64,000 nucleotides of DNA from Obrimoposthia wandeli (Eukaryota): contig CDROCS010000496.1 of NCBI GenBank assembly GCA_977020255.1, positions 496,001 through 560,000 on the forward strand, given 5' to 3'. A program made the position numbers and the translations under genes. Below are positions 20,567 through 45,042 of the stretch, one piece after another. Numbering within the stretch: the stretch's first letter is position 1; each line of letters opens with the position of its first letter. The notes beneath the pieces were generated by a model. That model was not told where the DNA came from. It made no database searches and saw only the letters and a program-made list of their open reading frames with translations.

Positions 20567-22095
20567 ATATCATCTCCAAATAACGCCAAGGAAAAACTTT
20601 ATAACATATGAAATTAATAGTAAATTTAAGGGTACATTGATTACTTTTTAAAATGAATTAAAACAGAGTTTTAATTGTTCAAATCGATTGGTTAACCATT
20701 AAATCTACAAGATACTGGTGGTTTCAATAGGCAAAACGATTGATTATTATAATAAACGCCATAATGATAGATTGTGAAAGTTTATAATATCATAATAATG
20801 ATAGTATACTATGATATTAGATCTTTATTCAAATGAGCGTTTACAATATATACAGGTCTGCACATTATCTGTAGATATACGATTATAATACAAACATTAA
20901 TTACAAGAACTATATGGATAAATTATGTAAGGAACTTACAATGGAATGTTTTTGACTCGAAATGAACAATTCAAATTATATTCAAACAATAACAATATTT
21001 TAAGCTTATAAGAACTTTTCTAGTTTTTTAATCAGCCGGCTCTATTAAGTTAAAATACAACTTTTTATTAATTTGTTTGAACCTTCTAAAATTACAAATA
21101 TAGTTTGATAATAATTTGCATTAAAATTATTGTAGTAATTATTACTATTATAATTACACATTATTAAATTGGACAAATTAATGTAATATTATTACAATAT
21201 GTATCCATAAAAAATAATTGTATTAGTTATATTTTAATATTAATTTCTGATATTTATTCTATAATAACTTATAAATAATCTGAAATATAATGTATGCGTC
21301 AAAAAAAGACCAACCCTAATATAACCTAATATAAATATAAAAGATTAATATGTATTTATAATGATTTATATTCAATAAATAATTGATGGTGCTTCAAAAA
21401 AAAATTGTATAGATCAGTATCTTTAAAAATAACCAAATTCTGAGGTATGAAACTGCACAAGTGTTCAGGAATTTGTGATTTTCTTTATCCTGTCCTGGTG
21501 AGTGTTTATTGGTGCTCAGGTATGGTGACGAGACTCGATTTGGGGTTCATGGGCAAAGAGTTGTTTGTCCCCGTTGTTGAGCTGGGTCTTCCCTGAGAGC
21601 TCCATGGAGCTCGAACTCCCATCTGAAACCCACAACCTAATACGACCATCTTGTTGCCATAAATAATCTGAGGTCTTATCAGACCATACCACTATTTTTT
21701 CATCGAGGCTCCCGTCATATAGAGTGTTGCATACACCATTTTAAACATCCTATTGTTAAGGTTGAGAATTAAGAAAATTAAATAATTTAGTTGATTAAAT
21801 ACTAAAATAAAAATCCTTGAAAGCAAGGTCGAAAATTAAATTAAAATAATAATTTAAGTTTTAGAATTAAAATTAGTGAAATTTAGGGTAAAATTAGGAG
21901 GACCACGAAGGTCGTGTATTATGCGAAAATGTATAAAAGTTTAAAGTTAATTAACCAAAGGGACAAAAATAAGAAATTAATTAAAAGAAAAACGGTTAAT
22001 TAAAACCGTCAATCAAGAAAGAAAAAGGTAAGCACATTTTGAGTGCAACGAGATTAATTGATTTTTTAGCAACAGAAACTTTCAAATTTCGAGAC

Positions 22096-22195
22096 CAGCT
22101 GTCATTGATTGACAGAATCCGGAGACTCGTATAGAAACCTTCAGTAATCACGGTAAACAGCTGTCATTTGATTGACACGACTGTTCCTATATAAG
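22096..22195 (+). promoter_or_regulatory. LTR promoter: two CAGCTG+TGATTGAC modules and TATA box
   Basis: CAGCTGTCATTGATTGACAG (22096-22115), CAGCTGTCATTTGATTGACAC (22158-22178), TATATAAG (22188-22195); mirrored at +21399 in the 3' LTR. Confidence 0.6.
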
Positions 22196-22339
22196 GAAAC
22201 GAAAATTAACCACAATCACAAATACGGGATTCAACTCCCTGACCACAAACAGAACCATTAAGTTCTCGTGTCCAAAAAGCTGATTGTATAAAGGTAAACG
22301 TTCCAGTCAGTAAAGATAATTGATTTTATTATTGTATTA

Positions 22340-22640
22340 AAGGTAAACGTTCCAGTCAGTGAAGATAATTGATTGTTAATAAGCTCTGTTTCGAAGAAGA
22401 TTCCCAGTGAAGATAATTGATTGTTAATAAGCTCTGTTTCGAAGAAGATTCCCAGTGAAGATAATTGATTGTTAATAAGCTCTGTTTCGAAGAAGATTCC
22501 CAGTGAAGATAATTGATTGTTAATAAGCTCTGTTTCGAAGAAGATTCCCAGTGAAGATAATTGATTGTTAATAAGCTCTACTTCGAAGAAGATTCCCAGT
22601 GAAGATAATTGATTGTTAATAAGCTCTGTTTCGAAGACGA
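22340..22640. repeat. 48-bp tandem array in LTR (~6 copies; also about 43740-44040)
   Basis: Unit cccagtgaagataattgattgttaataagctctgtttcgaagaagatt. Confidence 0.95.
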
Positions 22641-22730
22641 TTCCGCCAGGCTCGCAAGCACCACATACGGACCCTACACCGGACGTCCCACGAGTTGCTG
22701 TAACTGGTAAGAACACAGACTAGGTTCATT

Positions 22731-23161
22731 CATTGCCCCTAGTAGGCAATTAGGATATATTCATTACCCCTAGTTGGTAATTCTATATTTTCTTAATAAT
22801 ACACAAATTCATTGCCCCTAGCTGGTAATTAGGATCACTGCCTCTTTACCACAATCATTGCCCCTAGTTGGTAATTAGGATCGGACCTTTATTCATTGTC
22901 CCCAGCGACAATTAGGAAACCTACCAGACGTTTTTTCCCGTAAGATTCATTGTCCCTAGCTGGCAATTAGGTTCATTCATTGCCCCTAGTTGGTAATTCG
23001 GATAAATATTCATTGTCCCTAGTAGACAATTCGGTAAGATTCATTGTCCACTAGCTGACAATTCGGTTCGTTCATTGTCCGTAGTTGACAATTAGGAGTA
23101 AGTTTTCCTTGTCATCTTGACAATTAGGTTTTAGGAGATCCCTTGTCTACAGTAGACAATT
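22731..23161 (+). repeat. Array of 12 short hairpin motifs ATTGYC-N(5-9)-GRYAAT in LTR (also 44130-44561)
   Basis: Copies at about 22731, 22762, 22810, 22856, 22894, 22948, 22978, 23011, 23042, 23073, 23107, 23141 with variable spacers. Confidence 0.9.
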
Positions 23162-23430
23162 CGGGTCAAACACACAGAGAGAGTAAGGAACAAAGAAACA
23201 TTTAGCTAGAGATCAGAAGTAGGAGCGAAGAAATTTAAGAGAGTTGCGTTATAGATTAACCAACCTAAGTAAGAAGACTAAACCTAAGAAACTTAATCAC
23301 CTGAACGTAAAATCGATACGTGGTTCATCCCCACTTCTTGTAGAGACTTACAGAAGTCCTTTAGGAATTTTATCATACTTTTTAGAAATACGTACATAAA
23401 CGTATTGTGGTGTTAGTTACGTGAATTTTG

Positions 23431-23436
23431 AATAAA
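23431..23436 (+). terminator. Putative LTR polyadenylation signal
   Basis: AATAAA in context ttttgAATAAA, seen in similar context in related LTRs (about 46438, 58813, 60728). Confidence 0.5.
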
Positions 23437-23650
23437 CAATTTCCTACATTAGAACAAGTTGTTTTTACACCCTTCAGACTAAGAGACATCAAATCAAATA
23501 CCTTCAGATAGTACAAGAGATTAGGCAACCATAACACTAAGTAGGCCACGACCAACTTTAAGACCTGCTTCTAATCGAACTCACGTTGGGGTCCTCCGCA
23601 CATAAGAGGCTCTATACCAAGTTTCGTATAGAAACCCCAACATATTAAAG

Positions 23651-23669
23651 TGGTGCCCCGAGTGAGGAT
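23651..23669 (+). other. Primer-binding site, complementary to elongator tRNA-Met 3' end
   Basis: TGGTGCCCCGAGTGAGGAT, 8 nt after the LTR end; matches the complement of the metazoan elongator tRNA-Met 3' end as I recall it (TGGTGCCCCGTGTGAGGAT) with one difference. Confidence 0.75.
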
Positions 23670-23694
23670 AGCTCGTCGGACACAGCGAATTCAC

Positions 23695-23975
23695 GTAGAA
23701 TAAGTTCAGATAAGTTTTGGAAAATTGAGAATAAGTTTCAGGTGAATAGAATAAGTTCAGATAAGTTGCAGATAATTGAGAATAAGTTTCAGGTAAATAG
23801 AATAAGTACAGATATTAAGAATAAGTTTCAGATATTAAGAATAAGTTTCAGATATTAAGAATAAGTTTCAGATATTGAGAATAAGTTTCAGATAAATTGA
23901 GAATAAGTTTCAGATAAATTGAGAATAAGTTTCAGCAGAAGAAAATAGACAATTGAGAATAAGTTTCAGAAGAAG
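23695..23975. repeat. Leader tandem array 1 (20-22-bp units, core AGAATAAGTTTCAG)
   Basis: About 13 copies of the core directly downstream of the PBS. Confidence 0.9.
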
Positions 23976-23989
23976 ATATAAGTAAATTG

Positions 23990-24735
23990 AGTTAAGAATT
24001 TGATAAGTGTTGAGAAATCGAGTAGATTTGTTCCTCGAAGTTGAGAAATTGATAAGTGTTGAGAAATCGAGTAGATTTGCTCCTCGAAGTTGAGAATTTG
24101 ATAAGTGTTGAGAAATCGAGTAGATTTGTTCCTCGAAGTTAAGAATTTGATAAGTTTTTGAGAAATCGAGTAGATTTGTTCCTCGAAGTTAAGAATTTGA
24201 TAAGTGTTGAGAAATCGAGTAGATTTGTTCCTCGAAGTTAAGAATTTGATAAGTCTTGAGAAATCGAGTAGATTTGTTCCTCGAAGTTAAGAATTTGATA
24301 AGTGTTGAGAAATCGGGTAGATTTGTTCCTCGAAGTTAAGAATTTGATAAGTTTTGAGAAATCGGGTAGATTTGTTCCTCGAAGTTAAGAATTTGATAAG
24401 TTTTGAGAAATCGGGTAGATTTGTTCCTCGAAGTTAAGAATTTGATAAGTTTTGAGAAATCGGGTAGATTTGTTCCTCGAAGTAAGAATTTGATAAGTTT
24501 TGAGAAGTCGAGTGGATTTGTTCCTCGAGCCAGTAAATTTTATAAGCGAGAATCGAGTGGATTGATACTCGAAGTAATTAATTGAATAAGTTAAGTCGGG
24601 AGACTCTGTCCTCGAACTAATTAAAAAGATAAAAATCGTAAATAAATTGATAAAGTGAGAATCGAGTGGATTGATACTCGAAGTAATTAATTGAATAGGT
24701 TAAGTCGGGAGACTCTGTCCTCGAACTAATTAAAG
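23990..24735. repeat. Leader tandem array 2 (49-bp unit, ~11 copies) plus two related longer units
   Basis: Unit gttaagaatttgataagtgttgagaaatcgagtagatttgttcctcgaa (period 49, e.g. 24181 vs 24230); 24550-24735 has two copies of gaatcgagtggattgatactcgaag...gtcgggagactctgtcctcgaactaattaaa. Confidence 0.92.
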
Positions 24736-25142
24736 AGATAAAAAATCGTAAAATAAGAATTGTGAAATAAGATAAAAATAATAAGTATATTGATATCGTA
24801 AACGAATACATAATTGATAAGACAACGGATAATAGAAAAGGACCCGCGTATAATACTAGAAGACAAAGTCAGATTCCCAAGGAAGAGATAAATAATAATA
24901 AAGTTAACCGAATTGAACAGGTTCCCCAAACAGATAACAAAGTAACAGAAAAGACTAGAGTCGAAGAAAACGTATCAGAAAGAGACGTTGATCAATCAGC
25001 GGTTTCAACCGGCAGTTTTAATTTGACTGAATTATTTGGTGACATAGACCAAGAAGAATTTGAAATTGCCAATCCAGTAGTGATTGAGGAAGTTCCATTG
25101 AATAATATTGAAGAAATAGTTGAAGAAGTTATAGTTGAAAAT

Positions 25143-28100
25143 ATGGCTCAACCAGGAGCTCAAGCAGAAAATAATGCAGGAAATAATGTAGGTGACATGA
25201 ATGCCGAGCAGTTGGCACAAGCTTTAAATGCGACGTTGAGACCCAATTTTTCAGGATCATTGCAGATTACAAAGTTTAAAGGAGACGAGGAAAGTATTTG
25301 TGACTTCCTCGCAGAATATTCGAGTTGTGCAGATGTTCAAGGATGGAACGATAAAGAAAAATGTGTCAGAGTACAGGCACATTTAACCGGATTAGCACTT
25401 GAGGTGTATAAACATTTGACAGAAGCAGAACGTTTAGATTGGCCAACGTTGGAAAATGCTTTTATTGGAAAATTGGTATTAGGAGATTTAGCCAAAGTAA
25501 ATAAGCGACTCATGAGAGAACGGAAACAGAAACATGACGAAGGCGTGAATGAATACGCGTATGTTTTGAGAACCTTGGCCGCAAGAGCGTACCCAAGAAG
25601 AATAATGAGAAATCAGGACGGTAATCCTGTAGCTCCAGAAGCACAAGCAGCGGAAAATGACCGGAACCAAAATGAAATGGCAGAGGTCTTGTTAGATATA
25701 TTTAGAGGAGGATTGAAAAAGGATATTAAAGTGTTATTAGCAGTATCGGATACAAATGATTTTGATAACGCCGTGCGAAAGGCGAGAGAGATAGAGAAAA
25801 ATATAAAGAATAATGCAGCATTGGCAATCTACGCAATGACTGCAGGTGACGACGATAAGACAAAGGTCTTCGTGAATAAAACAGAACCGAGTAATTTTCA
25901 GAATCGAAATTATGGACAAAATAAGTTTGAAAAAATAGATGAATCCAGTAACGGAAATAGAGATAATTTCCGAAGTAGGAATCGAGATGATTCGAGAGGT
26001 AGAAATAATAGTGAGTCTTGGAACAGGAATCGAGATGATTCAAGAGGTAGAAATAATAATGATTCGTGGAATAGAAATAGAGATGATTCCAGGAATAGAT
26101 TTAATAGAGATAATTCAGGAAATCGCCAACCTTGGAGAGGAGACGATAGGAATTATAACGCCAACAGAGGAGAGCGAAGTGACTCTCGATTTGGAAATAA
26201 TGCAGGAAATAGTGACGGAAGATTCAATAATCGAGGAAGCGGTTTTGAATCGAATTTCCGAAGAAATGATTTTAGAGGACGCTATGATAATAGACAGAAT
26301 AGTCGTCGAGTACAGTTCGAAGATGAACAAAATAAGATAGATATTCGAGGGAGAATAATGTGTTATACGTGTAAGCAAATGGGTCACTATTCGAGAGATT
26401 GTACGAGAAGTAAAGAGTTCGGAACTAACAGATTTGGAAATAATAATTTCGGTAATAATAATTTTGGAAATAATTATAGAGGATATAATTCACCTCCGCC
26501 ATGGAATAGAGGTGGTGGATATACTCCACAGCCATGGAGACTGAATAATCAGTATACAGATAGACAACAGTCACCAGGTAGATACAATAACTATGCAGAC
26601 AGACAGCAAGGAGCTGAGAGATACAATAATTACGTAGGACAGCAAGGAGCTGAGAGATATAATAATTCCGGTAGATATAATAATAATAATGTTGACAAGA
26701 CAAATAGTCGAGAGAGTTCGCCGAAACCGAAAGGAAATTTTAGTTATGTAAGCGATGACAGTGATAGGAATCGCGAAACCGAGCTTCGACGCGAAATAGA
26801 TTTTGAAGATAGTGATAGTAAATTTGAACGAATGTTGGGAATAATTAAAGATTCACCACATACAAAGATGGCGAATTCATCTACGTTGTCGAAACAAGAG
26901 AAAAATCTACACTCGAGAGAAGAGATGAATGATTTAATGAATAGAATATTAGAAGCGTACGAGACACCAATAGAGAAAACGTGTAACGCACAACCTATGA
27001 CTGATCATGTAGAAGCAGCAAGAAATGCTACGAGTATGGAAAATGTAAAAAAGATAATTAGTGAAGCTAAGGAAACGTTGAATCAACCGTTAGATGAAAC
27101 GAGTGAAGCTCCAGAAGTTTTGGCCAAATTGCAAACAATTAAAGTGCACCGATTGGAAGAAGTGCGTGCAGAATTGGTTAAACATAGTCATGATAACTTG
27201 GGTTACAAAGAAGTACCCCGAGGACTATTGAAAGGTTATGGTCGTTATGTACAGAGATCAAACCAAACAGGAACGATGAAAATTTCACTTCGATTAATTT
27301 CCGGACAGATAATACATGAAAAACTTAACGTGTATCAAACAATGAAAACGATTCGGAAAAAGTTGGCTGAGAAACTTGAAATTGATGGAATGAATATGTT
27401 GTTCCATTATAAAGGGAGATCACTAGATGATGAGGACGTACCAGTCGAGTTTGGATATCCGATAGGAAATGAATTAGAGGAAAAAATTGATGTCATCACT
27501 GTAGGACGTCAAGAGTTAGTAGATAATGAAGGATTAACCGAGATATTGAATTCTGCGTTAGAAATGATAAAAACGCCTATAGAAATTTTAGACAGTTCAA
27601 GTGAAAGCGGAGATGGTGATGTGGCTGAAGCTTGGAACAAGACGTCTACGCCAGAACCGTACGTAACTGAATTGCAAGACATGAATTTGGAAAATGAGTT
27701 GACAACTCCAGTGGTCGAGGTACCACCAGAACCAGATATAATTCCAATCAGACAAGATGAAGTCACGGATACAGCTAACCAAGTGAGACAAAACGAAACC
27801 GTAACCCAACTAGTAGGAGAAGACGAAGTCTCCGAGATTGTAGATTTGGATTCACCAATTTGGCATGCCGCATACAAAGATAGACAAGCAGAGCAAATGA
27901 TGCGACAAAGTGAAGAGATTGGCCATGAAGAAGGACCAAGTCAAGAGATACAGTATAATGGTGAAACGTATGATCCAGGAGAGAATCAAACTGAGTATCA
28001 GTATTTTCGAAGAGGACCTGGAAGACCTAGAAAAGGCGAAAGTATATTACGAAATGTTCTAACTGCACCACAGACTGATGAAGAGAGACATCTAAGTATT

Positions 28101-31100
28101 GGACAGTTAGCAGCGTCATTAGAGCAGTATAGTGCAGAGAGGAATGAAGATATCAGAGGTGATATGAATTCGGAAACTCCAAGTAGTAAAGATATACTTA
28201 CGGGAATTCTCAGGCAAGTGAAGCCGAAGTTGTTTAAAATGTACAGAGATGAAACAACCGATATAACAGACAATTTGACTAAAGCAGTCAGATCACAGAT
28301 GTCTGCAGTAAAGAGAATGACCGCGAATCATGTATACCATGCATCGATAGATAGATTTTATGACGGTGAAGTTTTAGCGAGATTATGTGGAAACCAGACT
28401 ACAAATAAAAAGTTAATTACAGCAATCACATATCTATGTTTCCAATTGACGGAACGAACGAGCCAACCTCACGAAGTCAAACAAGGAATAAATGAAGCAA
28501 TGTATTTGATCGAGAATGTGTTACAGAGACGAATTGACGAAAATGGAGGTTGGGCAAAATTAAGTGACTACGCTAAAACCATTTTGGAAATGAATGAAGA
28601 CGATGACGAACAATGTCATGAGAATCGTCAAAAGGAAAATAAACAATACCGTCCGAAAGAGAGAAACAATCAACCAAATATGTCCACAACAATGATGATG
28701 ATGATGTTAGTAATGTTTATGGGAATGCAACAGGCATCAGGATTGATAGCATATGACTGTAGCATACCAAAGATGGGACAAAAGTATTCACTGCTTGACA
28801 GCGAAGACTGCCCAGAGTCACAACCGTCAAAACTAGAAGTTCAAGGTGTTGAAAACTACTTTGTGTATCAGGATGTTGATAAAGTACAAGTAGAAGTGAA
28901 AGAATGTTCAATCCATTCAAGTTATCACGAATTCTATTGTGGTCATAGAAGTTTTATGTCAGAAATCACACCTACCACACCGTACAAGGCACATAAGGTT
29001 TTGCCGAGAGATTGCGAAGATGCATTTCGAACGGGAACGATAGAGGTAGACAAGAATTACAAACCTGAAGTAAAAATTGGAGTGAGACGATACGAAACAG
29101 TCACGAGAGTCGGACAACGATGGGCCGATGGATCTTGTGACGGAGGAACAAAAAACGTGCGTGGAACCAAAGTAACCGAGTTAGTAATGGACGTAACTTA
29201 CAAAATCGAATTAAAAACATGGACCGCCAATTTTGATAAAAAGACACAACTAATGATGAAGTATCCAGAATGTAAAATGACAGATACATCTTGTTTTACA
29301 GGCGAATCCACAATTGTGTATAACATAAATCCGAAGCAATGCTCTTTAGTATTTTTGAAAGAGATTAGCTTTAATAAAATAAAAGGATTCCTGTATAATA
29401 AAGATGGAGAAGGATTCCTGTATAATAAAGTTGGAAAAGGATTGCTCAATGAAACAAGACCAATCCCAATGACAAAGACACCTACACTGTTAATGGCAAC
29501 ATCAATAGAAGAAGGATTGATATTTATTAAAAAGAGAAACAAAGCGCGATGCGGAATGACTGTTAGTACTACAAACTATCCAGGAATAGTTTTGTCTAAA
29601 GAAGCAATAGCATTGGCAGAAACCAAGCTAAAACCAAAAGATATGCAGCTACATACGTATTTTAATAATAAAATTGATTTCTATTATCATAAAGGATTGA
29701 TGCAAATGGAACAGTTATATCGAATGATGATTGAAAGAGATTGCCAGCTAAACAAAGAGATCGTGAGAACAAAGTTAGCATTAGCTATTACGAATCCAGA
29801 CATGGTAGCACCATTATTACCCTTGGATGAAGGAGTATTTGCTAAAACCATGGGAGAAGTATTGTATACTTACAAGTGTAATAAAGTAGAGGTACAGTTG
29901 AGAAAAACAAATCGATGTACGAGTGAATTGGCAGTAACGTATAATTTAAAAGATCTTTTTGTTGAACCAATCACGAGAATGTTACTTCCAAAAGACACTC
30001 CAACTAAAGAAATCAGCTGCTCTAATATAATGGCACCTGAATATCAGATGACGAATAATCTATGGATAACGTTACCTGATCGGAAGCCAACGAAAACCCC
30101 AGCGATGATAAGAATGACGAATCTTAAAGGTAAAATGAAATTCCAAGCGGTGGAAAATATGGAGAACGCAGGATTGTACAATGAAAAAGACTTAAAAGCG
30201 GCGTGGAACGAAATAATGTTTCCAGTAAGAAGAGCCAGAGTACTTACGGAGATGGTACATCGAGCATTACCGCCAGGAGCGAGATATGCGAATTTTGATA
30301 TGTTATTGTCGCCAAGTCATTTCAAGGAAGCAGCACATCAGACACTTAGAAAGATGTGGGGGAAATTCCTTGTTTTAGGACAATTATTTTCGGGTATCAT
30401 AGGTATTTATGTTATAATTAAATTTGTGCAGGTAATTATAGCCCAGGTGTTGTCTACGTATAGTTTATACAGGATAACCGGAATCACCTGGCAACTTATA
30501 ATTGGATGTTTTCCATTTTTAGCAAAATATCTAATGCACCATCATCACGAGAACGAGTTGCGAGCCCTCAAGAAGGAACAACACCAAACGAGAACCATGA
30601 TGAGAGAACCAAGAAACTGTCGAGACGATAACGACGACGATAATGATAGTCCAGGAGTATATGCAAAGATACCAGGAAAACCAAAGATTCCGTTACCAGA
30701 CAAGGAAGAAGTGGCGTTAAACCTATACCCAATGAAGGAATTGAAGGAAGAGAAGGAAAAATTCAAGAGAGGCATCTTAATGATAAGATGGCCTAAAGTG
30801 AGCTACAGTGAAATTCCACAAGCAGAGGAAAAAGACAAAAAAGATAATTCCAGAAGAATTCTGAAGTCTAGGATATCAAATGAGAATCCAAATGCTCCAC
30901 CACAAGTAGCAGTAACATTGAACGGAAGAGAATATCTTGCCGAAGTTGATACCGGATCTGCAGTATCAGTACTGAGTAAAGAAATCTTGTCATCAAAAGA
31001 ATTAAGAGAAGTATGTCCTAGAAAACAGACATTTGTTAACGTGAATGGTACAGATGTAGTGTCGGAAGGAACACTGAAATGTTCATTGAATATCGATGGA

Positions 31101-31334: not shown

Positions 31335-32090
31335 CAAAGTCGATACTTCACTACAAAAATGTAAATTTCGGACCACAAGATACGACGAGGAGAAAAATAA
31401 CATACGTAAATCTGTCAGAAAGGGATCCCATGAGATTCGAGAGAAAGAGACGAAATATATTAGAACAGTACTATTCAAAAGGAATGGCACGTAAAATGGC
31501 AAGATCAGGTTTAGAAATGTTAAACGCGACAAGCAGTTATGGTCAGGAGATAGTAGTACGATGCGTATGGTGTAGAGTAAAGTTTAGAGAATGGGAACAG
31601 AATGAAAACCCAATGAGACGTCATAAAGAGATGCACCAAATTGTCCATTTCTTTTGAAACTGAAAACGTCAAACGTACCAGAAATCCAAACGGGAAAAGC
31701 ACCCGATTTCGATTACAGTGACGGGATTCCAAAAGGAGAATCAGCTCTAATAACAGGAAGAGTAATAACGAATAGTCGAATTGAAGATATATTCGAAGTT
31801 ATGCGAGAAGTGAACGAATGTGACGAACAATATCGAGAAGTAACTTTCGAAGATCCAAGACTTAAAAAATTGGCAAAAAAGGAATTTTTGCTATAAAAAG
31901 GGATGGTAACGACGTAATTAAATGCCACAAGTGTAAAAAAGAACGAATTATCGACAGATACACTCTTGAGCTACCTAAGAAAATTTTACATCATGAATTT
32001 TGCGAATTTTGTACTTGTAAAAACAAAATAAAGCAAAAAGAACAGAAAACCGAATGTATAATCGAATACCAAATCACACGGAAAGAGATT
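31280..32090 (+). CDS. Polyprotein segment 2: two BIR domains (split across three frames)
   Basis: BIR1 KMARSGL...VVRCVWC..F.EWEQNENPMRRHKEMH[P]NCPFL, completed by one-base repair at about 31637. BIR2 RLKKLAK[K]GIFAIKRDGNDVIKCHKC...ILHHEFCEF, completed by one-base repair at about 31878; this frame runs into ORF 32091. Confidence 0.8.
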
Positions 32091-35737: not shown

Positions 35738-35756
35738 ATTTAGAGTCGGAGATCAA

Positions 35757-38700
35757 GTGATGATATTTTATCCAGTCATCGAACCAGGTCTATCGTTTAA
35801 ACTTCATAGACCATACAAAGGACCCTACAAGGTGATCCAGACAACCTCAACAAATTTGAAAGTAATCAACGAAGAGAATCGGAACAAAGAACCGATGATT
35901 GTACATGCAAATCGATGCAAATTAGTACCAAATAAAGATAATGCGTCACGATATGAGTTAAGATCACAGAAATCGAAATCGAATACCAATACCATTAAAC
36001 TTACACGAATGGTAAGTGATCGGAACTACATAAACATGATGACGAGTGGTAGCGAAGAAAAACCAGCGAGAATTGGTATGCTCAGAATGAAGTACCAAGA
36101 GGAAAAGGAAGTAATCCGACACATCGCACCACAAGAGATATTAGAAGAAGACGAAGAGATAATAGTCGTTTTCGAAAAAACACAACCAACAGATGTAGCT
36201 AAAGAAGTCATTGTGAAAGATGCACTAACAAACGAATTTCTGTGCGAACTTAGAGTATCATACTACGACGGAAATACATTAGTCGCAGCACTTTATCAAA
36301 ATTCCAATGTGTTTACGACTGAGAAAGTGATAATCGAAATCACATTGACACCAAACATAGTTGCATGGCAGAACTATGACAGTACTGAAGCAGGACTAGC
36401 CAGTCAGGAAGAAAAAGAACCGGCCGGTGGTCACATACTGCATGGTACACCAAAAAGACTCAAACAAGAATACCACGATGTAATAATGGTATTACGTAAT
36501 TCACATGGGAAAAGAGATATCATGAGAGTCCATTTAATCGACGCTGACACTGAAAAGATAATTTGTCAGATGGACACCAAATACTTTGATGGAAAGACAA
36601 TTGTATGTTGTATACCAGAATCTCACCGATTAGAGACAGATCAAACGGAAGTATCTGTAAGGTTGAGCGTAATAGAAGGATTCCATTCGCCAACCTATCC
36701 GGAAGTGACTAACAATAAAATCATCAAAGCAACGGCAGAATTACGCATTGACAGCGGATACCGGAAGTGGGAAGCTAAAAATAAAAAACCACAAAGAATC
36801 AATATGATCCGAGAACAAGTAACAACTTCAAACCAGCCAAAATATCATGCTGAAATAGTATCATCCGCGCCAAGTGTGATCACATCGATAAACGACGAAA
36901 TTATAATTTTACTAAAAAATCGATGGCCGTCATCAACCGAGATACGAGTAAATTTAATTAATCATGCGAAGACACCGATATCTAAGCTGAATGTTACCTA
37001 TTTCGATGGATTGTCCATCATGGGTAAATTGGAAACAATTGTCATGTGCTATGGAGCACAGTTCCAAGTTGAGATACTTAAAGATAGTGTAATACCGTAT
37101 CCGATTCACAAATACGAAGGGGAAATCAATCCAATTATTCTAACACCTTCATTAATTTCAGTCCAGACAGACATACCAGAATACCCTTCGAGCGAGTCTA
37201 GTGAAGACAGCGAACCAGAAAGTAACGATACAGAATCAACAGAATCCGAAGATAACATAATAGAGCGATTCGGAAGAACCATGGAGATTGAATTCGCTAA
37301 AGAGAGCAGAAAAAGACAAAACATAGAATTCGTGAAACAGAATATACAAGAAAGACGAATTAAATCTGCAGAAGAGACCGAGTCGGAAGAAGACTCAACA
37401 AAGGAACAGACATCAGAGACAAAGATGAATATCTCTCCAGCAATACGAATGCTGAGAGGAAAGAAACTGGCGAAACTATCCAACATCGACGAACAGATAG
37501 AGAAGAGATTAGAAAGACTAAAACTTGAAGAGTCAGAATTAATGCCACCAATGAGTGAGATCATTCCAGGTAAGTTATACCTCGGAAATGTGGAGGATGC
37601 AACAGATGAAAAGAAACTGTTGGAACAAGGAATAACATATGTGATCAACGTTACAATGAATCACAAATCGCAATATCAGACGATCAGAGCTATGACATTA
37701 AGAGTAAAAGACTCAATGGACGCTAATCTTCTCGAATGGTTCGTAGAAACAAACGAAATACTTCACAGAGAACTCCGGAACAAAGGAAAAGTGTTGGTAC
37801 ATTGTCAGAAAGGAATTTCTCGATCAGCAACCCTAGTATTAGCATATCTAATAAAGACTAGACGAATGCAGGTACTAGAAGCGTTAAAATACCTACAGGA
37901 GAGAAGAAGTATTGCAAACCCAAATCTTAATTTTTTGGGACAGTTGGCAAATTACCAACTTCTGTTGCAAGAACAAAGACGGATGGACGACATTCCTGAG
38001 GATCCAAAGGAAAAGAATTTCCTCCAAGCATTATCATTGACCGGGTTATTTTTAGCCGGAGTCGATAAAATTACACAGATAATGCCAAAAGTATTTTTAT
38101 GTCATCCAGGAGATATAGATACTGCTGGATTAAAGTTCCATAGTATCAACCGAGTAATCAACATTGTTGAAGTCGGAAATGAGATAATTAGTCTGTGTCA
38201 AAATACTGAAGATGACACCACTCGATACATACATGCTTCCAATCGAGAGATAAACGATGCACAACAACATTTGACGAAATTGACTCAAACCATCCAAGCT
38301 GAAGTCACAGAAGGAAACGGCGTTCTGATATATCAGAAAAAAGGTACAATGTTAGCGCCTACCATAGGTGTATCCTTGTTGGTAGAGTACCATGGTCACA
38401 CGCCAGAAGAAGCAATGGTCTACATCAAACAGAATAGACCGAATACGGAATTCAAACCGTTACTCGTTCGAGAAATAGAGAAATACACCGAAAAGAGGAA
38501 ACAACAACGAGAAACAAATGAAGCTACAACAACAGCGCCCAGCTTTCAATACCAAAGATTGCTAGCGATAGGCTTGTTAAGTTGTTTAATGCCGATAACG
38601 GGAGCACAGGAGATAGGCTCCAACCACGGAAATAGTTCCTGGTTCAACGAAATCCAAAATTACACCATACAGTACCATACGCCAGCACTGATGATGCTAT

Positions 38701-39809
38701 TAGTGTTGTTAGGACTAATTGATGTGTGGATCATCCGAAAATGTCTTCGATCTATGAGAACCGACAGTAAAAGATTTCAGTTTGTAAAGATGAAAAGACC
38801 AAATGGACCAACGAACAAAGTGCTTGTGTATCTAGACGAAAGGATCGAGGACAACATAGTAAATGAAGCGATATTTTACCCACAAAACAGAATACTGAAT
38901 CAATTTCGAATAGATTACGAAGCTGACCGACAGCGCACACTTGACCGAATATCAACAACATTCGCCGGATGCAAGCGAAGTAAACGAGTTGTAAAGGAAA
39001 TACAAAAAGATGCTGATACAAAAGGACCAACGTATATATTCAACGGAGATGTCATCAAAACACGTGAGTATGGAAGTAAGAGAGTAATAATTGAAACAAT
39101 GGAAGGACATAAAACATGCTTGTCCGCCAAAAATGGATTCGGAAAGTTGACGATACAAGGTAAACCGGTACAGTTGATTATCGGAAGAGATGGAATCGAG
39201 GAGATGTCAAAACAACGACAGACAACAAAACGATACAATCAGAAACAGATATCTCTCAAACGATTGATAATTAAAACCCTTTGTAAAAGGTCGGTCAAGG
39301 CCCTGTGCACCGTTGCACAAGGATTGATTTATGGAGTAGTAATTGGATTGGTACTGCAAGCCATGCCAACCAGTAAAGCCGAATTGATGACACTATCCGA
39401 ATATAATTTACATTTGAGAAATCTAGACAACACCCTAGAAATAATCAAGACATCCCACAGTAAAGCCGTGATGATCATGTGTGTAAAAGGATGTCCAGGA
39501 CGAATGTGTATAGTCCCAGCGACCGAAATGATAACACTTAGTGGACATTATGGAATTAGTGTTGTCACATGTGAAGACTACATATTTGGACAAACTAAAA
39601 TAGTGCTTCTCAGTGACAAGTCCAACCAAAGTGCACACAAATTTAAAATATTAACCATCAAGAGTAAAGGAATACCAGCAGTACGTTACGGTATTCTAGA
39701 ATTGGTTAATCCAATACTCGCACTGATCATTGGATTTATAATATTAATATTACTCATCTTGTTTTGTTGTTCAAAGATAGAGTCGAGATCAAAAAAAGAA
39801 ACGTCATGA
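35757..39809 (+). CDS. Polyprotein segment 5: integrase C-terminus (GPY) - three ~90-aa repeats - DUSP - pseudo-DUSP - two membrane proteins
   Basis: PYKGPYKV..VHANRCK; DUSP 37551-37960 with VLVHCQKGISRSATLVLAYL; second DUSP-fold copy about 38070-38490 with VLIYQKKGTMLA; four hydrophobic segments 38556-39770. Confidence 0.9.
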   Translation: MMIFYPVIEPGLSFKLHRPYKGPYKVIQTTSTNLKVINEENRNKEPMIVHANRCKLVPNKDNASRYELRSQKSKSNTNTIKLTRMVSDRNYINMMTSGSEEKPARIGMLRMKYQEEKEVIRHIAPQEILEEDEEIIVVFEKTQPTDVAKEVIVKDALTNEFLCELRVSYYDGNTLVAALYQNSNVFTTEKVIIEITLTPNIVAWQNYDSTEAGLASQEEKEPAGGHILHGTPKRLKQEYHDVIMVLRNSHGKRDIMRVHLIDADTEKIICQMDTKYFDGKTIVCCIPESHRLETDQTEVSVRLSVIEGFHSPTYPEVTNNKIIKATAELRIDSGYRKWEAKNKKPQRINMIREQVTTSNQPKYHAEIVSSAPSVITSINDEIIILLKNRWPSSTEIRVNLINHAKTPISKLNVTYFDGLSIMGKLETIVMCYGAQFQVEILKDSVIPYPIHKYEGEINPIILTPSLISVQTDIPEYPSSESSEDSEPESNDTESTESEDNIIERFGRTMEIEFAKESRKRQNIEFVKQNIQERRIKSAEETESEEDSTKEQTSETKMNISPAIRMLRGKKLAKLSNIDEQIEKRLERLKLEESELMPPMSEIIPGKLYLGNVEDATDEKKLLEQGITYVINVTMNHKSQYQTIRAMTLRVKDSMDANLLEWFVETNEILHRELRNKGKVLVHCQKGISRSATLVLAYLIKTRRMQVLEALKYLQERRSIANPNLNFLGQLANYQLLLQEQRRMDDIPEDPKEKNFLQALSLTGLFLAGVDKITQIMPKVFLCHPGDIDTAGLKFHSINRVINIVEVGNEIISLCQNTEDDTTRYIHASNREINDAQQHLTKLTQTIQAEVTEGNGVLIYQKKGTMLAPTIGVSLLVEYHGHTPEEAMVYIKQNRPNTEFKPLLVREIEKYTEKRKQQRETNEATTTAPSFQYQRLLAIGLLSCLMPITGAQEIGSNHGNSSWFNEIQNYTIQYHTPALMMLLVLLGLIDVWIIRKCLRSMRTDSKRFQFVKMKRPNGPTNKVLVYLDERIEDNIVNEAIFYPQNRILNQFRIDYEADRQRTLDRISTTFAGCKRSKRVVKEIQKDADTKGPTYIFNGDVIKTREYGSKRVIIETMEGHKTCLSAKNGFGKLTIQGKPVQLIIGRDGIEEMSKQRQTTKRYNQKQISLKRLIIKTLCKRSVKALCTVAQGLIYGVVIGLVLQAMPTSKAELMTLSEYNLHLRNLDNTLEIIKTSHSKAVMIMCVKGCPGRMCIVPATEMITLSGHYGISVVTCEDYIFGQTKIVLLSDKSNQSAHKFKILTIKSKGIPAVRYGILELVNPILALIIGFIILILLILFCCSKIESRSKKETS

Positions 39810-41222
39810 TCTCGCAAGACGAACAGGTCAAATGAATTTACAAAATTCAACACAATTATACCAAGACCACCATTTTTAGACGAACCAGCACCAGAATACC
39901 AGCCAACGATATATGAACACATCGAGGAAAGACCGTACTATATGAGTAATTTGACTTGTTTCATTGAAGTTCCTGAGTTTAGGAATCGAACGATCATAGG
40001 AATCATGCTGATCGCACAAATCACCACTACCAAGGCTAGTTATGAGATCATGATCAGTAAATGGAGACAAGACGTAATACGGGCAATATACATAGAAATT
40101 CCCCTACTAAAAACAAATCACGTAGTAGACATTCATCTACAGACGTCAGCAACTGACAATATCGATCAGAAATTGTATGTCATCCGACAGGTCAGAATAA
40201 AAATCGACCAAAATACACCCGTTTACAATTTAATATTATTGCATCATGAAAGAGTGTTATACCTACGGATAACAATATCAAAGAGGAAGCGGATTATCCA
40301 AAGCATCCGAACAAAGTCATTAATATTACCTAGAGATGAGCGCATCTGGAAAATTGTCGACAGGATTATGATCACAGGTAGACGACGTAAAGCCGTATGG
40401 AATTCCGTTAGGTTATTTTTCAGATTGCTAGAAACTGACAGCGTGACAGTAATGTGTCCCAACCCAGATGGCGTAATCAGATTCGAAATCCAAAGCCAAA
40501 TGTTAGTACCACATTTTAACACAGAATGTCTGTGTAATCGAATTGCCAGTAATTCTACAGAGACCTCGACCATAATCATGATAATAACAGGTGAAATATT
40601 CTACATAACTCTAAGATACCAGAACCGTCGATTTCGCAGATACGGTATAAGTATCAAACCCAGGAAAATCATTCCCAGAAGACCAATTCTAGTCAAAAAG
40701 AAGGCAAAGGTAATCGAAAGTAAACGACATTCCAAGAAACCGACAGTGATCAAAACAAAGACAGAAGCGAAAGAAAAAGAGTCCAATCCCAGAAACCAAA
40801 GTACAATTATTAAGAGGACAAGAGTGAGGGGAACGATCCCACTAGATCCCAAACATCATTTTCCATCCAAAATAATAATACCTGTTCCACCAGAAACAAA
40901 ACACCCAAATCCCCGAATTTTTAGAAAATCGGACATAATACATGGAAACCGATCAAAACCCATGGAAATATCATTCGAACCGACAAACAACAAAATGAAG
41001 TATGATTATAAATCATCAGACAGCGGAATAACAGCGGTCAATGCCCTAATTGGAATGGCCGTAGTGTCAACAGCAGTGGTTTTATTGACAATCGTGTGCG
41101 TAAAAGGCAGTCAAGTATGCCCAGGAATACGACGGAAATGCGAAGGATTGCGATGCTGTGACACACCCATCATGGAGGAAGTGGAATTGCGACCCTTACC
41201 TCCGCCTCCCATCAAGATATGA
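39810..41222 (+). CDS. Polyprotein segment 6: predicted type I membrane protein (same frame as segment 5 past a single TGA)
   Basis: Frame is open from 39810 into ORF 39942-41222; signal-like IIGIMLIAQITTTKA, TM AVNALIGMAVVSTAVVLLTIVCV, tail RPLPPPPIKI*. No family recognised. Confidence 0.7.
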   Translation, partial: SRKTNRSNEFTKFNTIIPRPPFLDEPAPEYQPTIYEHIEERPYYMSNLTCFIEVPEFRNRTIIGIMLIAQITTTKASYEIMISKWRQDVIRAIYIEIPLLKTNHVVDIHLQTSATDNIDQKLYVIRQVRIKIDQNTPVYNLILLHHERVLYLRITISKRKRIIQSIRTKSLILPRDERIWKIVDRIMITGRRRKAVWNSVRLFFRLLETDSVTVMCPNPDGVIRFEIQSQMLVPHFNTECLCNRIASNSTETSTIIMIITGEIFYITLRYQNRRFRRYGISIKPRKIIPRRPILVKKKAKVIESKRHSKKPTVIKTKTEAKEKESNPRNQSTIIKRTRVRGTIPLDPKHHFPSKIIIPVPPETKHPNPRIFRKSDIIHGNRSKPMEISFEPTNNKMKYDYKSSDSGITAVNALIGMAVVSTAVVLLTIVCVKGSQVCPGIRRKCEGLRCCDTPIMEEVELRPLPPPPIKI

Positions 41223-41345
41223 TGAGTCAGAGGAGGTTGTAGATAAATTAGTGTGTGAAATATGTAGAAATATCTAGAAGCGATTGTACAAATAGTAGAA
41301 GTATATAAAACTCATGTGGAAATTAATCATCATCATGTATTTAGA

Positions 41346-41645
41346 ATGGCCGAGGAATGCCCAATATGTTTAGAAGATCTAACCGAACGAAGAACAAGAC
41401 CCGAAACCTGCAACCATTTACACCACGAGGAATGTTTATCGACATGGATCAGAACTTATGGACAGTTCGGACACCCAACATACCCTCGTTGCCCTATATG
41501 CAGAAGACAATTCGCAAGATTCGTCATGTTAGAACCCAACCAAAGGGATGTATATGTACAGGTGGTATTCTGCTGGAAGAATTTCGGAGAGTGTTGGTGT
41601 TATTACTGTTTGTCAGATCGACAAAATCAGACCACTTTTGTGTAA
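41346..41645 (+). CDS. Small RING-H2 protein 1
   Basis: MAEECPIC...TCNHLHHEEC...CPIC plus C-terminal CWKNFGECWCYYC; TATA-like gtatataaaa at 41301. Confidence 0.85.
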   Translation: MAEECPICLEDLTERRTRPETCNHLHHEECLSTWIRTYGQFGHPTYPRCPICRRQFARFVMLEPNQRDVYVQVVFCWKNFGECWCYYCLSDRQNQTTFV

Positions 41646-41705
41646 AGATCACACAACCACCAGTCCTCAATCGAGCCCAAATTCAACATCAACCCTCCCA
41701 CAGTA

Positions 41706-42011
41706 ATGTCTGGAGAATGTTCCATCTGCTACGAGAGCATCGTGGACTTCTACACCAAGCCCAACAACTGCGACCACTTTTTCCACGTCGAATGCCTCGA
41801 GACGTGGATTCCCATCGCAAACAGCAACAACCCACTCGACTTCCCAACCTGCCCGATGTGCAGAGCGACCTTCTCAGTACACTACGTGTACAACCAAGAC
41901 AGCCTCCAAGCAGTGGTACCCATCGTACACTGCTGGAAAACCATCTGCGATTGCTGGTGCTCGTTCTGCGTGGAGGAGCGAAGCACAGGCCAGCCCAATC
42001 CCCAACAATAA
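41706..42011 (+). CDS. Small RING-H2 protein 2
   Basis: MSGECSIC...NCDHFFHVEC...CPMC plus CWKTICDCWCSFC. Confidence 0.88.
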   Translation: MSGECSICYESIVDFYTKPNNCDHFFHVECLETWIPIANSNNPLDFPTCPMCRATFSVHYVYNQDSLQAVVPIVHCWKTICDCWCSFCVEERSTGQPNPQQ

Positions 42012-42345
42012 TCGAAGGTAACTTTCTGACTTGAACGTGACATCATGAACTACCCTGTGTATCGCAAACCGCGATAAATTAGCTACCATAATTGTAATCA
42101 TAATTATATAATCTTGTGAACTGTAAATTGACCATTACCATTTTTATGTATGATGTTTAACTGAAATTGTAATTATTATACTGAATTTCTAAAAAAGACA
42201 ATTTTTATGCTTAGTGTGAATGCGTAAACATGCCTAAAATCGAAACAAAACTCGGTAGGATTAGATAACTAAGGATTCATTTTGAAATAGAATTTAAATT
42301 AACGATGAGAACGGTGAACCCCAAATTGAAAGGAGTCATTTTCTC

Positions 42346-42882
42346 ATGCAGATGTTGTGCTCCGTATGCATGGAGAAGATTTGGGCGGTATCGGCATCCC
42401 CTGTCGGCTGCCGTCACAAATTTCACGAGGAGTGCCTCTATTTGTGGACCAAGGTTCGAACCTCCGGACAAATCACCTGTCCACTGTGCCGGACACCCTT
42501 CGCCAAATGGACACTCCAGAGCCGCGGAAGACACAAAGGCACCCGATCGCCTGCCAGCTGCATTGGTGGCATCCATTGCCAATGCTACGTGTGTCTCGCA
42601 CGCCGGCGCGACACACAACTGGGCGTCCGCGAGAGATGGCGGTCTAGTCGAGACTGCCACTCGTGGTTCCAGGCCAGACGGCACTGGATTGAAAACCATA
42701 CCATGAACAGGCAGCACTTCGACCTGTTCATCGACAGCCCGCATTTGACCCGGAGCCAGCAACTCCATTTGTACAACGGGGACAGTCCGTCCTTTCCCGA
42801 CCTTCCCCTGGAGCAGGTTCTACGCTACCTGACCAGTCGGAACCAGCCGACAATAACAATTGACCTCACACATGAAAACTGA
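42346..42882 (+). CDS. RING-H2 protein 3 with C-terminal SIM-like motif
   Basis: CSVC...GCRHKFHEEC...CPLC, CIGGIHCQCYVC, C-terminal PTITIDLTHEN*. Confidence 0.85.
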   Translation: MQMLCSVCMEKIWAVSASPVGCRHKFHEECLYLWTKVRTSGQITCPLCRTPFAKWTLQSRGRHKGTRSPASCIGGIHCQCYVCLARRRDTQLGVRERWRSSRDCHSWFQARRHWIENHTMNRQHFDLFIDSPHLTRSQQLHLYNGDSPSFPDLPLEQVLRYLTSRNQPTITIDLTHEN

Positions 42883-43152
42883 CACTGTCCTCCCTTCTCT
42901 CCTTCCTAATCTGTAATTTTGTGTGTAAAATTTTAGTTGTGTATAAATAATAGTGTATACTTTGAGACTTGCTCCAAATTATATATTATGCTTCCCACTG
43001 GAAAACCGAGATTTTGAAAAAATTGTTTTTTGGGCATGTTTGTTGAAGTTGAATGATTGATTTTGTAGGGATGAACCTAAAATCAACAGCCAAGGGCTTA
43101 TTTAAGTAAAATCGATACGTTCCGGGGACGTAACTTTTGGAACCCCGAGGTA

Positions 43153-45042
43153 TGTTAAGGTTGAGAATTAAGAAAATTAAATAATTTAGTTGATTAAATA
43201 CTAAAATAAAAATCCTTGAAAGCAAGGTCGAAAATTAAATTAAAATAATAATTTAAGTTTTAGAATTAAAATTAGTGAAATTTAGGGTAAAATTAGGAGG
43301 ACCACGAAGGTCGTGTATTATGCGAAAATGTATAAAAGTTTAAAGTTAATTAACCAAAGGGACAAAAATAAGAAATTAATTAAAAGAAAAACGGTTAATT
43401 AAAACCGTCAATCAAGAAAGAAAAAGGTAAGCACATTTTGAGTGCAACGAGATTAATTGATTTTTTAGCAACAGAAACTTTCAAATTTCGAGACCAGCTG
43501 TCATTGATTGACAGAATCCGGAGACTCGTATAGAAACCTTCAGTAATCACGGTAAACAGCTGTCATTTGATTGACACGACTGTTCCTATATAAGGAAACG
43601 AAAATTAACCACAATCACAAATACGGGATTCAACTCCCTGACCACAAACAGAACCATTAAGTTCTCGTGTCCAAAAAGCTGATTGTATAAAGGTAAACGT
43701 TCCAGTCAGTAAAGATAATTGATTTTATTATTGTATTAAAGGTAAACGTTCCAGTCAGTGAAGATAATTGATTGTTAATAAGCTCTGTTTCGAAGAAGAT
43801 TCCCAGTGAAGATAATTGATTGTTAATAAGCTCTGTTTCGAAGAAGATTCCCAGTGAAGATAATTGATTGTTAATAAGCTCTGTTTCGAAGAAGATTCCC
43901 AGTGAAGATAATTGATTGTTAATAAGCTCTGTTTCGAAGAAGATTCCCAGTGAAGATAATTGATTGTTAATAAGCTCTACTTCGAAGAAGATTCCCAGTG
44001 AAGATAATTGATTGTTAATAAGCTCTGTTTCGAAGACGATTCCGCCAGGCTCGCAAGCACCACATACGGACCCTACACCGGACGTCCCACGAGTTGCTGT
44101 AACTGGTAAGAACACAGACTAGGTTCATTCATTGCCCCTAGTAGGCAATTAGGATATATTCATTACCCCTAGTTGGTAATTCTATATTTTCTTAATAATA
44201 CACAAATTCATTGCCCCTAGCTGGTAATTAGGATCACTGCCTCTTTACCACAATCATTGCCCCTAGTTGGTAATTAGGATCGGACCTTTATTCATTGTCC
44301 CCAGCGACAATTAGGAAACCTACCAGACGTTTTTTCCCGTAAGATTCATTGTCCCTAGCTGGCAATTAGGTTCATTCATTGCCCCTAGTTGGTAATTCGG
44401 ATAAATATTCATTGTCCCTAGTAGACAATTCGGTAAGATTCATTGTCCACTAGCTGACAATTCGGTTCGTTCATTGTCCGTAGTTGACAATTAGGAGTAA
44501 GTTTTCATTGTCATCTTGACAATTAGGTTTTTAGGAGATCCCTTGTCTACAGTAGACAATTCGGGTCAAACACACAGAGAGAGTAAGGAACAAAGAAACA
44601 TTTAGCTAGAGATCAGAAGTAGGAGCGAAGAAATTTAAGAGAGTTGCGTTATAGATTAACCAACCTAAGTAAGAAGACTAAACCTAAGAAACTTAATCAC
44701 CTGAACGTAAAATCGATACGTGGTTCATCCCCACTTCTTGTAGAGACTTACAGAAGTCCTTTAGGAATTTTATCATACTTTTTAGAAATACGTACATAAA
44801 CGTATTGTGGTGTTAGTTACGTGAATTTTGAATAAACAATTTCCTACATTAGAACAAGTTGTTTTTACACCCTTCAGACTAAGAGACATCAAATCAAATA
44901 CCTTCAGATAGTACAAGAGATTAGGCAACCATAACACTAAGTAGGCCACGACCAACTTTAAGACCTGCTTCTAATCGAACTCACGTTGGGGTCCTCCGCA
45001 CATAAGAGGCTCTATACCAAGTTTCGTATAGAAACCCCAACT
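43153..45042 (+). repeat. 3' LTR (1,890 bp)
   Basis: Copy of 21754-23642 at offset 21399/21400; ends ...CCCCAACT followed by TSD CTAT. Confidence 0.97.

Follow-up and report, generated by a model that had tools for sequence, protein, structure and literature searches.

The Burro elements are giant Gypsy elements of planarians that reach thousands of copies and encode polyproteins of 4,873–5,140 amino acids (aa). According to the accessible part of their description, these polyproteins comprise Gag, a SUMO-like domain, a BCL2-like domain, an in-frame mononegavirus-like Env, a BIR domain, a dUTPase-like domain and Pol (PMC6431247). The same text records Burro1–4/GYPSM1 in Schmidtea mediterranea and a Burro-like element in Dugesia (Girardia) tigrina, and puts forward the idea that they are proviruses which interfere with apoptosis and ubiquitination. 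The BIR-RING protein of Burro1 (B-IAP, Lee et al. 2026, Dev Cell, PMID 41916287) is reported to guard stem cells from caspase-mediated death and to improve regeneration, and an expansion has been reported for land and freshwater planarians, both as cited in the available portion of PMC13465017; the available portions of PMC8532177 and bioRxiv 2025.12.11.693146 contain no further domain description. Here we describe a 23.3-kb element at positions 21754–45042 of a 64,000-nucleotide stretch of Obrimoposthia wandeli DNA (contig CDROCS010000496.1, positions 496,001 to 560,000), hereafter the window, to which all coordinates refer unless another contig is named; its features lie on the forward strand. 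This is very probably a Burro-type giant Ty3/Gypsy element of a triclad planarian, equipped with a cargo set of its own. A PIWI of the host shares 67% identity with Schmidtea PIWI2 and 62% with one from Dugesia, with Dendrocoelum also among the best matches, and the host is therefore placed among the triclads.

The likeness to Burro1–4 extends, as far as the accessible description goes, to the planarian host, the giant polyprotein (~5,359 codons here) and the domain order through protease, reverse transcriptase, RNase H and integrase (PR-RT-RH-IN). Because the core of the element matches the published Burro plan (PMC6431247), its combination of an envelope with anti-apoptotic domains is already known. 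An overlap with Burro had been surmised in the initial annotation of the window, and it proved wider than guessed, spanning Gag, the ubiquitin/SUMO-like domain, Env, BIR and Pol and, as a weakly supported candidate, the Bcl-2-like domain. While this core has been described, the cargo that follows the integrase is not mentioned there: the accessible text of PMC6431247 (section 7) makes no mention of a dual-specificity phosphatase (DUSP) pair, beta-rich repeats, membrane units, RING-H2 open reading frames or a second protease. By the same partial source, Burro elements of Schmidtea exceed 30 kb, against 23.3 kb here, and bear two to three CCHC knuckles, against the one detected here. B-IAP, so far as its available account tells, shares BIR and RING with the element, which has a BIR, a degenerate BIR, a UBA-like segment and a RING.

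The element is assigned to Ty3/Gypsy (Metaviridae) by its long terminal repeats (LTRs), primer-binding site (PBS), target-site duplication (TSD) and PR-RT-RH-IN order. The TSD reads CTAT at 21750–21753 and again at 45043–45046, and 4-bp TSDs flank all five other copies in which both ends were examined. In pairwise comparison, the 5′ LTR (21754–23642; 1,889 nt, containing 48-nt and 30-nt tandem arrays) and the 3′ LTR (43153–45042; 1,890 nt) show three differences, namely a single substitution, a 1-nt indel and the final base. The 19-nt PBS (23651–23669) is the complement of the 3′ terminus of tRNA-Met(CAT) genes in the host. The TSD, the PBS and the roughly three LTR differences were all called correctly in the initial annotation. 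tRNA-Met genes, the primer type of the element, are tandemly arrayed at G000:C2252:200–11858 of the host assembly (G000, 1.35 Gb) with a spacing of ~284 bp. An 8-nt spacer (23643–23650) separates the 5′ LTR from the PBS and is kept in all 11 junctions examined; the usual spacer is 0–3 nt, shorter than that. The 5′ leader (23696–24752) holds tandem arrays with units of 20, 49, 51 and 109 nt, and no clear polypurine tract is seen at 43125–43152, immediately 5′ of the 3′ LTR. By these signatures, the element replicates by tRNA-Met-primed reverse transcription and integrase-mediated insertion, and it is both amplified and constrained.

The coding capacity of the family is dominated by a single polyprotein frame of ~5,359 codons (25143–41219), broken seven times in the window copy, near 31.3, 31.6, 31.9, 34.4, 34.8, 35.7 and 39.8 kb. 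Among the 10 best-matching copies, the seven junctions are open in 8/10, 10/10, 8/10, 8/10, 4/7, 9/10 and 9/9, respectively, and the stop at 41219 is common to all nine copies scored (open in 0/9). Since the junctions are mostly open elsewhere and the stop is shared, the family encodes one polyprotein that begins with Gag and ends with the third membrane unit; three small RING-H2 genes come after it. The Gag/PR/RT/RH/IN set had been taken as complete, which the seven interruptions contradict for this copy; the phosphatases and membrane proteins listed alongside it are present, all of them inside the polyprotein frame instead of separate from it. Gag (25143–26405) has a capsid-like region and one CCHC knuckle (Pfam Retrotrans_gag, E 0.0069; zf-CCHC, E 1e-5); reverse transcriptase with a YIDD motif plus RNase H (33483–34807), and an integrase with zinc-binding, core and C-terminal parts (34889–35920), are likewise recognized by Pfam. 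Where Burro has its dUTPase-like domain, a segment at 32862–33101 is conserved in metagenome relatives and has no Pfam or PHROG match; PHROGs also returned no match for any of seven cargo pieces. Homopolymer runs at the break zones are 3–6 nt long and uninformative as to error versus mutation, and the single indel between the LTRs may reflect an indel frequency roughly comparable with that in the frame. The near-identical LTRs therefore speak for a young insertion and not for a working copy.

Seven breaks in one copy might also suggest a chimeric assembly, or nested insertions mimicking one element. The likelihood of either is practically negligible: the gene order is unchanged at 95–99% identity across many contigs, the family frame crosses the junctions, and the whole is bounded by one TSD and matching LTRs. 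The decisive evidence is a survey of copies, which refutes the chimera. In 20 PBS-anchored copies, taken from the PBS list in contig order (C9:13623, near a contig end, was left out), Env was found in 17, reverse transcriptase in 15, the DUSP in 12, the pseudophosphatase in 11, RING-H2 genes 1 and 2 in 14 each and gene 3 in 11; the cargo is thus present in other copies, as the initial annotation had proposed to check. Those misses that were traced are deletions, a rearrangement, a Polinton insertion or contig ends. Contigs from two runs of one sample span all 30 element bins and perhaps represent the source sample, so that they lend no independent support. Across the assembly, a 15-mer of the PBS has 5,590 matches, at least 54 of them of tRNA-gene type, and none in the control; the first 10 matches all lie behind the element's LTR type. 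A DNA motif for the DUSP active site occurs at 6,079 places, again with none in the control. By rough reckoning, 6,079 copies of up to 23 kb would make up as much as about one-tenth of the assembly. The LTR pairs of five other copies are 91.5–99.5% alike, pointing therefore to repeated bursts and copies of mixed age.

The part of the polyprotein behind the integrase sets the element apart from the published plan. It begins with three beta-rich repeats of ~90 aa each that have a Y-[YF]-D-G motif in common (36105–37115; self-similarity E 5e-8 and 4e-5), which sit between integrase and DUSP and were overlooked in the initial annotation. ESM Atlas gave a TIG lead of 0.90, and an alignment-based model is all-beta at a pLDDT of 68 (single-sequence fold, pLDDT 33). 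Foldseek returned nothing for the model at E≤0.001, and no fold matched it clearly, the best Z being 6.0 to beta-barrels, with plexin chains at 3.9–4.0; searching the PDB with a profile of the repeats gave no sensible match. An IPT/TIG-like fold is, on this modeling, a lead only.

The repeats are followed by a DUSP (37554–37970; Pfam DSPc, E 2e-35) with the Asp and HCx5R motif and an intact HCQKGISRS loop, and directly behind it by a DSPc-like pseudophosphatase (38040–38501; E 8e-7) in which the catalytic Cys-x5-Arg loop is lost. The DUSP pair called in the initial annotation thus stands as two DSPc domains, the second of which is not catalytically intact. The nearest solved structures to the DUSP are MAP kinase phosphatases (MKPs), namely human DUSP10/MKP5, DUSP4 and DUSP1 (PDB, E 1e-22 to 1e-24) together with DUSP2, and the Asp and HCx5R motif is intact in the element. 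Unlike these, it has no rhodanese/docking domain, lies in a retroelement polyprotein and is trailed by a dead copy; upstream, where the rhodanese/kinase-docking domain would lie, Pfam gives no match to one and the beta-rich repeats stand instead. A protein database search with the DUSP pair, confined to longer proteins, gave no match at E≤0.001, which is weak evidence.

Three units with the appearance of type-I membrane proteins, judged from their signal-like and transmembrane (TM) segments, complete the polyprotein. According to hydropathy, unit 1 (38550–39290) has a signal-like segment, a short, putatively glycosylated loop, a TM at 38676–38747 and a 170-aa tail; unit 2 (39294–39791) a signal-like segment, an ectodomain of ~105 aa and a TM; and unit 3 (39960–41219), also by direct reading, a signal-like segment, an ectodomain of ~330 aa, a TM at 41025–41129 and a tail. 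Beyond the stop lie the three RING-H2 genes of the initial annotation, borne out by Pfam: gene 1 (41346–41645), with a C-terminal four-Cys motif, and its paralogues gene 2 (41706–42011) and gene 3 (42346–42882), the last with a longer tail. Our literature search, beyond which most subscription papers lay, found no paper on dual-specificity phosphatase cargo in a gypsy/env LTR retrotransposon. Provisionally, and against the literature searched, the DUSP with its dead partner, the beta-rich repeats, the membrane units, the RING-H2 genes, the second protease and the Polinton-collinear IAP (inhibitor of apoptosis) described below appear to be new.

Selection on this cargo was gauged by pairwise ratios of nonsynonymous to synonymous substitution (dN/dS) between the window copy and an older subfamily, pooled over 19 loci that are not independent and with dS partly >1. 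Among the replication genes, dN/dS was 0.24 for Gag (3 loci), 0.23 for protease 1 (7) and 0.17 for integrase (2). The other modules gave 0.17 for the ubiquitin-like domain (4 loci), 0.13 for the Bcl-2-like domain (3), 0.23 for Env (5), 0.15–0.21 for the beta-repeats (2–3), 0.11 each for DUSP and pseudophosphatase (2 each), 0.17–0.29 for the membrane units (4–16 loci; unit 1 0.17–0.24, unit 2 0.22, unit 3 0.29) and 0.37 (13), 0.29 (9) and 0.19 (1) for RING-H2 genes 1, 2 and 3. The highest value among the genes, 0.62 (range 0.42–0.94, 5 loci), belongs to the first BIR (31420–31650), which may be under either relaxed or partly positive selection. An overlapping shadow frame, included as a control, gave 1.18 (8 loci); with that value and no Pfam match, the 225-aa overlapping frame at 41357–42034 was rejected as a gene. 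With dN/dS of 0.11–0.37, the first BIR excepted, the cargo is therefore constrained like the replication genes, and purifying selection on nearly all of it supports a role in manipulating the host. In 20 younger loci the DUSP loop reads VHCQKGISRS, and in one it has a stop.

Such constraint might also arise if the cargo were kept chiefly for the benefit of the host, a mutualism as reported for Burro1, and not for that of the element. This reading, which we regard as rather doubtful, draws on the BIR-RING of Burro1, said to improve stem-cell survival and regeneration (cited in PMC13465017, available portion), and on the capacity of ~6,000 phosphatase copies to affect host signalling. However, the selection was measured between mobile subfamilies whose copies decay after insertion, a pattern that fits selection during replication of the element; the two kinds of benefit are, besides, not mutually exclusive.

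A subset of old copies adds a second view of how the family spreads. Five of 15 old loci (L070, L071, L076, L079 and L083) share one deletion junction that joins window ~31.8 kb to 39.15 kb, removing everything from protease 2 to the pseudophosphatase and keeping Gag-Env-protease 1 plus the 3′ membrane and RING genes. These copies lie in different contigs at 83–86% identity, and the shared junction thus points to a non-autonomous, pol-less subfamily spread in trans, which fits a protease 1 serving the Gag-Env half. Other internal deletions are seen in L035 and L045, and L041/L042, once considered a distant subfamily, is a frameshift-ridden copy instead.

Between Gag and the first protease lie the modules that the element shares with Burro. 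A ubiquitin-like domain (27270–27470; Pfam ubiquitin, E 0.0059; homologue in the metagenome relative L112), whose C-terminal di-glycine is not seen, has moderate support, with matches to ubiquitin and ISG15 in the PDB; because these match better, the SUMO/ubiquitin-like label first given to it holds for its ubiquitin-like half and not for SUMO. The neighbouring helical domain (28170–28592) is a Bcl-2-like candidate whose position, as in Burro, and GGW motif give weak but consistent indications. Its identity, also proposed at the outset, stays sub-threshold, with E 0.061 in Pfam and E 0.13 to KSHV vBcl-2 over most of the domain, and a profile built with two distant relatives reached Bcl-2/Bcl-xL at E ~0.1, behind designed helical proteins. 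Env (28680–30560), called initially as a fusion glycoprotein, is confirmed as Monjiviricetes_fusion (Pfam PF24664, E 1e-94). It lies in the Gag frame with an internal signal peptide, a fusion-glycoprotein ectodomain and a TM at 30363–30467 (hydropathy), is full length and free of stops in the window copy, and has 10 cysteines invariant across four relatives. The ectodomain has no match among solved structures, and a protein database search with the segment from the ubiquitin-like domain to Env gave none at E≤0.001 (weak evidence).

An intact envelope raises the question of whether the element is at present infectious, or moves from cell to cell, as an enveloped retrovirus-like agent whose cargo serves an extracellular cycle. 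This is possible, if somewhat short of an even chance. The stop-free Env, with cysteines held in common with distant relatives and a dN/dS of 0.23, would be in keeping with it, as would the pol-less copies, which retain precisely Gag-Env-protease 1 and the 3′ membrane and RING genes; a provirus hypothesis is, moreover, already in print for Burro (PMC6431247, accessible part). Yet the action of Env could be confined to the cell interior or to adjacent cells, and its ectodomain is without a structural match. Other enveloped retrotransposons are built differently: arthropod retrotransposons with chuvirus glycoproteins are BEL/Pao elements, and insect errantiviruses carry a baculovirus F-type env as a separate third open reading frame after pol, whereas the PF24664 Env of the element lies in frame before pol. 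The chuvirus-glycoprotein retrotransposons resemble the element as LTR elements with a captured viral fusion protein (PMC7642597, PMC10084718, parts available). From these and from errantiviruses it differs by an Env inside the Gag-Pol frame and by a far larger cargo.

Two DTG-type aspartic proteases recognized by Pfam (30906–31175 and 32553–32819), missed as a pair in the initial annotation, flank the IAP module (31330–32445; Pfam), the frame of which is broken in the window copy. The module consists of a BIR, a degenerate BIR, UBA-like helices and a RING. Of the BIR-BIR-RING originally described, the first BIR and the IAP-type RING are firm, and the second BIR is weak (E 0.034 by itself). 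The layout of the module, including the UBA-type segment, is like that of cIAP1. The combination of IAP, Bcl-2, phosphatase and RING functions resembles that of baculoviruses or poxviruses, and it led to the initial description of the element as carrying a large-DNA-virus-style kit. As an analogy this stands. That the cargo was actually taken from large DNA viruses of baculovirus or poxvirus type is, however, highly improbable: the best structural matches of the phosphatase are cellular MKPs (DUSP10, DUSP4, DUSP1), with no viral VH1-type entry among 60 matches at E≤1e-10, the IAP has its cIAP-like UBA-type segment, Env is of RNA-virus type, and scans of viral contigs with Env and with an IAP alignment, of low sensitivity, found no relative.

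A nearer source may lie among the DNA transposons of the same genome. An intronless 341-aa IAP of a Polinton-like family aligns end to end with that of the element (32.6% over 344 aa, E 7e-45), and a second such family has an intronless 301-aa IAP that is 49% identical over 137 aa. Both are collinear with the element IAP, inter-domain linkers included, and score 122–147 bits against it, as compared with 33–37 bits for two host BIR exons. Genes for an A32 ATPase, an integrase, PolB, a capsid-like protein and a TBP-like protein neighbour these IAP loci, and in one family a DUSP-like gene lies ~1.5 kb from the IAP. IAP and Bcl2 homologues have already been reported on adintoviruses (PMC8502044, accessible text), and Polintons/adintoviruses are, like the element, mobile and furnished with anti-apoptotic genes, though they are DNA elements. 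The IAP, and perhaps other cargo, could thus have been exchanged with resident Polinton/Maverick elements instead of being captured separately from the host. We hold this to be plausible without being the likelier outcome. The collinear, intronless and better-scoring IAPs, in loci with Polinton genes and in one case with a DUSP-like neighbour, argue for it; parallel capture of one host IAP may also account for them, because no host BIR-RING or UBA-bearing IAP is found among the matches listed, which mobile copies filled. The DUSP-like gene of the Polinton family is distant, catalytically dead and only 31% identical to that of the element, and so makes no special link, and the adintovirus precedent (PMC8502044, in its accessible text) means that such genes on Polinton relatives were known. 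At L037/L038 (G000:C4:659436–679435), a Polinton-like element with PolB, A32 ATPase, capsid-like, chromodomain and IAP genes follows the Gag region of one copy, apparently inserted into it. L105, L108 and L110 represent another high-copy Polinton-like family than that at L037/L038, with IAP, dead DUSP and TBP-like genes beside ATPase and integrase; its 341-aa frame appears in many of the best 150 BIR matches.

The element also belongs to a wider group in which Env precedes Pol in frame. Four of the best 150 database matches to PR-RT-RH carry the same Env family, and a metagenome scan found at least three env-in-frame loci among 593 candidate stretches. In the relatives P0017, P0029, P0034, P0090, L111, L112 and L113, Env lies in frame before Pol at 27–41% identity, and the reverse transcriptases are 50–67% identical. 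Quick reverse transcriptase trees supported by SH-aLRT only (one of 50 rows selected out of 142, the other of 30 rows) place the element in a clade with all four Env-bearing matches, L111 and L113, at 95 and 97. L112 has the order Gag, ubiquitin-like, Bcl-2-like, Env; several proteases occur in L111 (three), P0015 and P0017; and type-I membrane proteins follow the integrase in relatives. A profile of those ectodomains scored the element no better than 100 shuffles, that is, with no detectable homology, and the stretches of relatives examined hold no IAP, DUSP, beta-repeat or RING-H2 match. From this distribution, the in-frame Env, the ubiquitin-like domain and the Bcl-2-like domain may be ancestral to the clade, and the genes for IAP, DUSP and RING proteins specific to lineages within it. 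Variable cargo slots of the clade probably lie behind Env and behind the integrase. L111 further has a membrane protein between its proteases and a DEDD-type exonuclease gene after the polyprotein (L111:10617–12107). The Gypsy polyprotein P0034 (HBK71150.1), which bears an env, is deposited as a hypothetical protein of a Flavobacteriaceae metagenome-assembled genome, probably by eukaryotic contamination.

The modules would work together as follows. The polyprotein would be threaded through the endoplasmic reticulum membrane in flavivirus-like fashion, as hydropathy and inspection by eye suggest, and signal peptidase would release Env together with the three type-I membrane units; the signal peptide of Env might stay attached to the Bcl-2-like domain and serve it as a tail anchor. 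The cytosolic parts would be cut out by the two aspartic proteases, of which protease 1 sits behind the tail of Env and protease 2 ahead of reverse transcriptase. By analogy with known families, the IAP and Bcl-2-like parts may prevent the death of the stem or germ cell in which the element is replicating, the MKP-type phosphatase may damp p38/JNK stress signalling with its dead partner as scaffold or substrate trap, and the RING-H2 proteins may ubiquitinate host restriction factors. The blocking of stress kinases, which the initial annotation had proposed together with that of silencing, is conditional on this reasoning, and no part of the element points to silencing specifically.

Several points weigh against a Burro-type element with host-directed cargo. 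The topology and processing sites of the polyprotein were read by eye and hydropathy, and its proteins are predictions from DNA sequence. ESM Atlas pointed the Bcl-2-like region to DUF6532, and its Bcl-2 matches are all sub-threshold. The DUSP is without the MKP docking domain, so that specificity for mitogen-activated protein kinases is not assured, and its dN/dS comes from two of the 19 old loci, in both of which the catalytic loop escaped a motif scan. No named Burro sequence appeared among the database matches, and Burro1 was compared by description. The MATH_TRAF_C, Smc and ankyrin features of Burro1 have no Pfam match at E≤0.05 in the long frames, and the element is therefore not Burro1 itself; midasin, another Burro feature, has no match in it either.

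Two other repeats share the window. An older, related LTR remnant lies at 58835–60600 (75–88% identical over short blocks; it contains a 56-nt tandem array), and a 2.2-kb element at 52101–54333, with 55-nt inverted ends and two GC-richer frames (52519–54042) without a Pfam match, is probably a DNA transposon.

At its most ambitious, the picture would be that of a lineage that has captured a working MKP-type phosphatase, a pseudophosphatase, several surface proteins and E3 ligases of its own, exchanges anti-apoptotic genes with resident Polintons, makes enveloped particles and, having amplified to ~6,000 copies, determines at what thresholds stress kinases respond and stem cells die in planarians. 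Burro would then be a single branch of a larger and so far undescribed clade of “complex” metaviruses in which Env lies in frame and the cargo slots are swappable. Taken as a whole, we consider this picture unlikely. The relatives from metagenomes extend the env-in-frame plan beyond the few Burro elements that have been described. The IAP shared with Polintons makes it possible to test, in a single genome, whether genes pass between RNA and DNA mobile elements. Planarian wound signalling runs through ERK, JNK and p38, and thousands of selected copies of an MKP-type phosphatase would constitute a directly testable second route by which a transposon may tune regeneration or its own survival.

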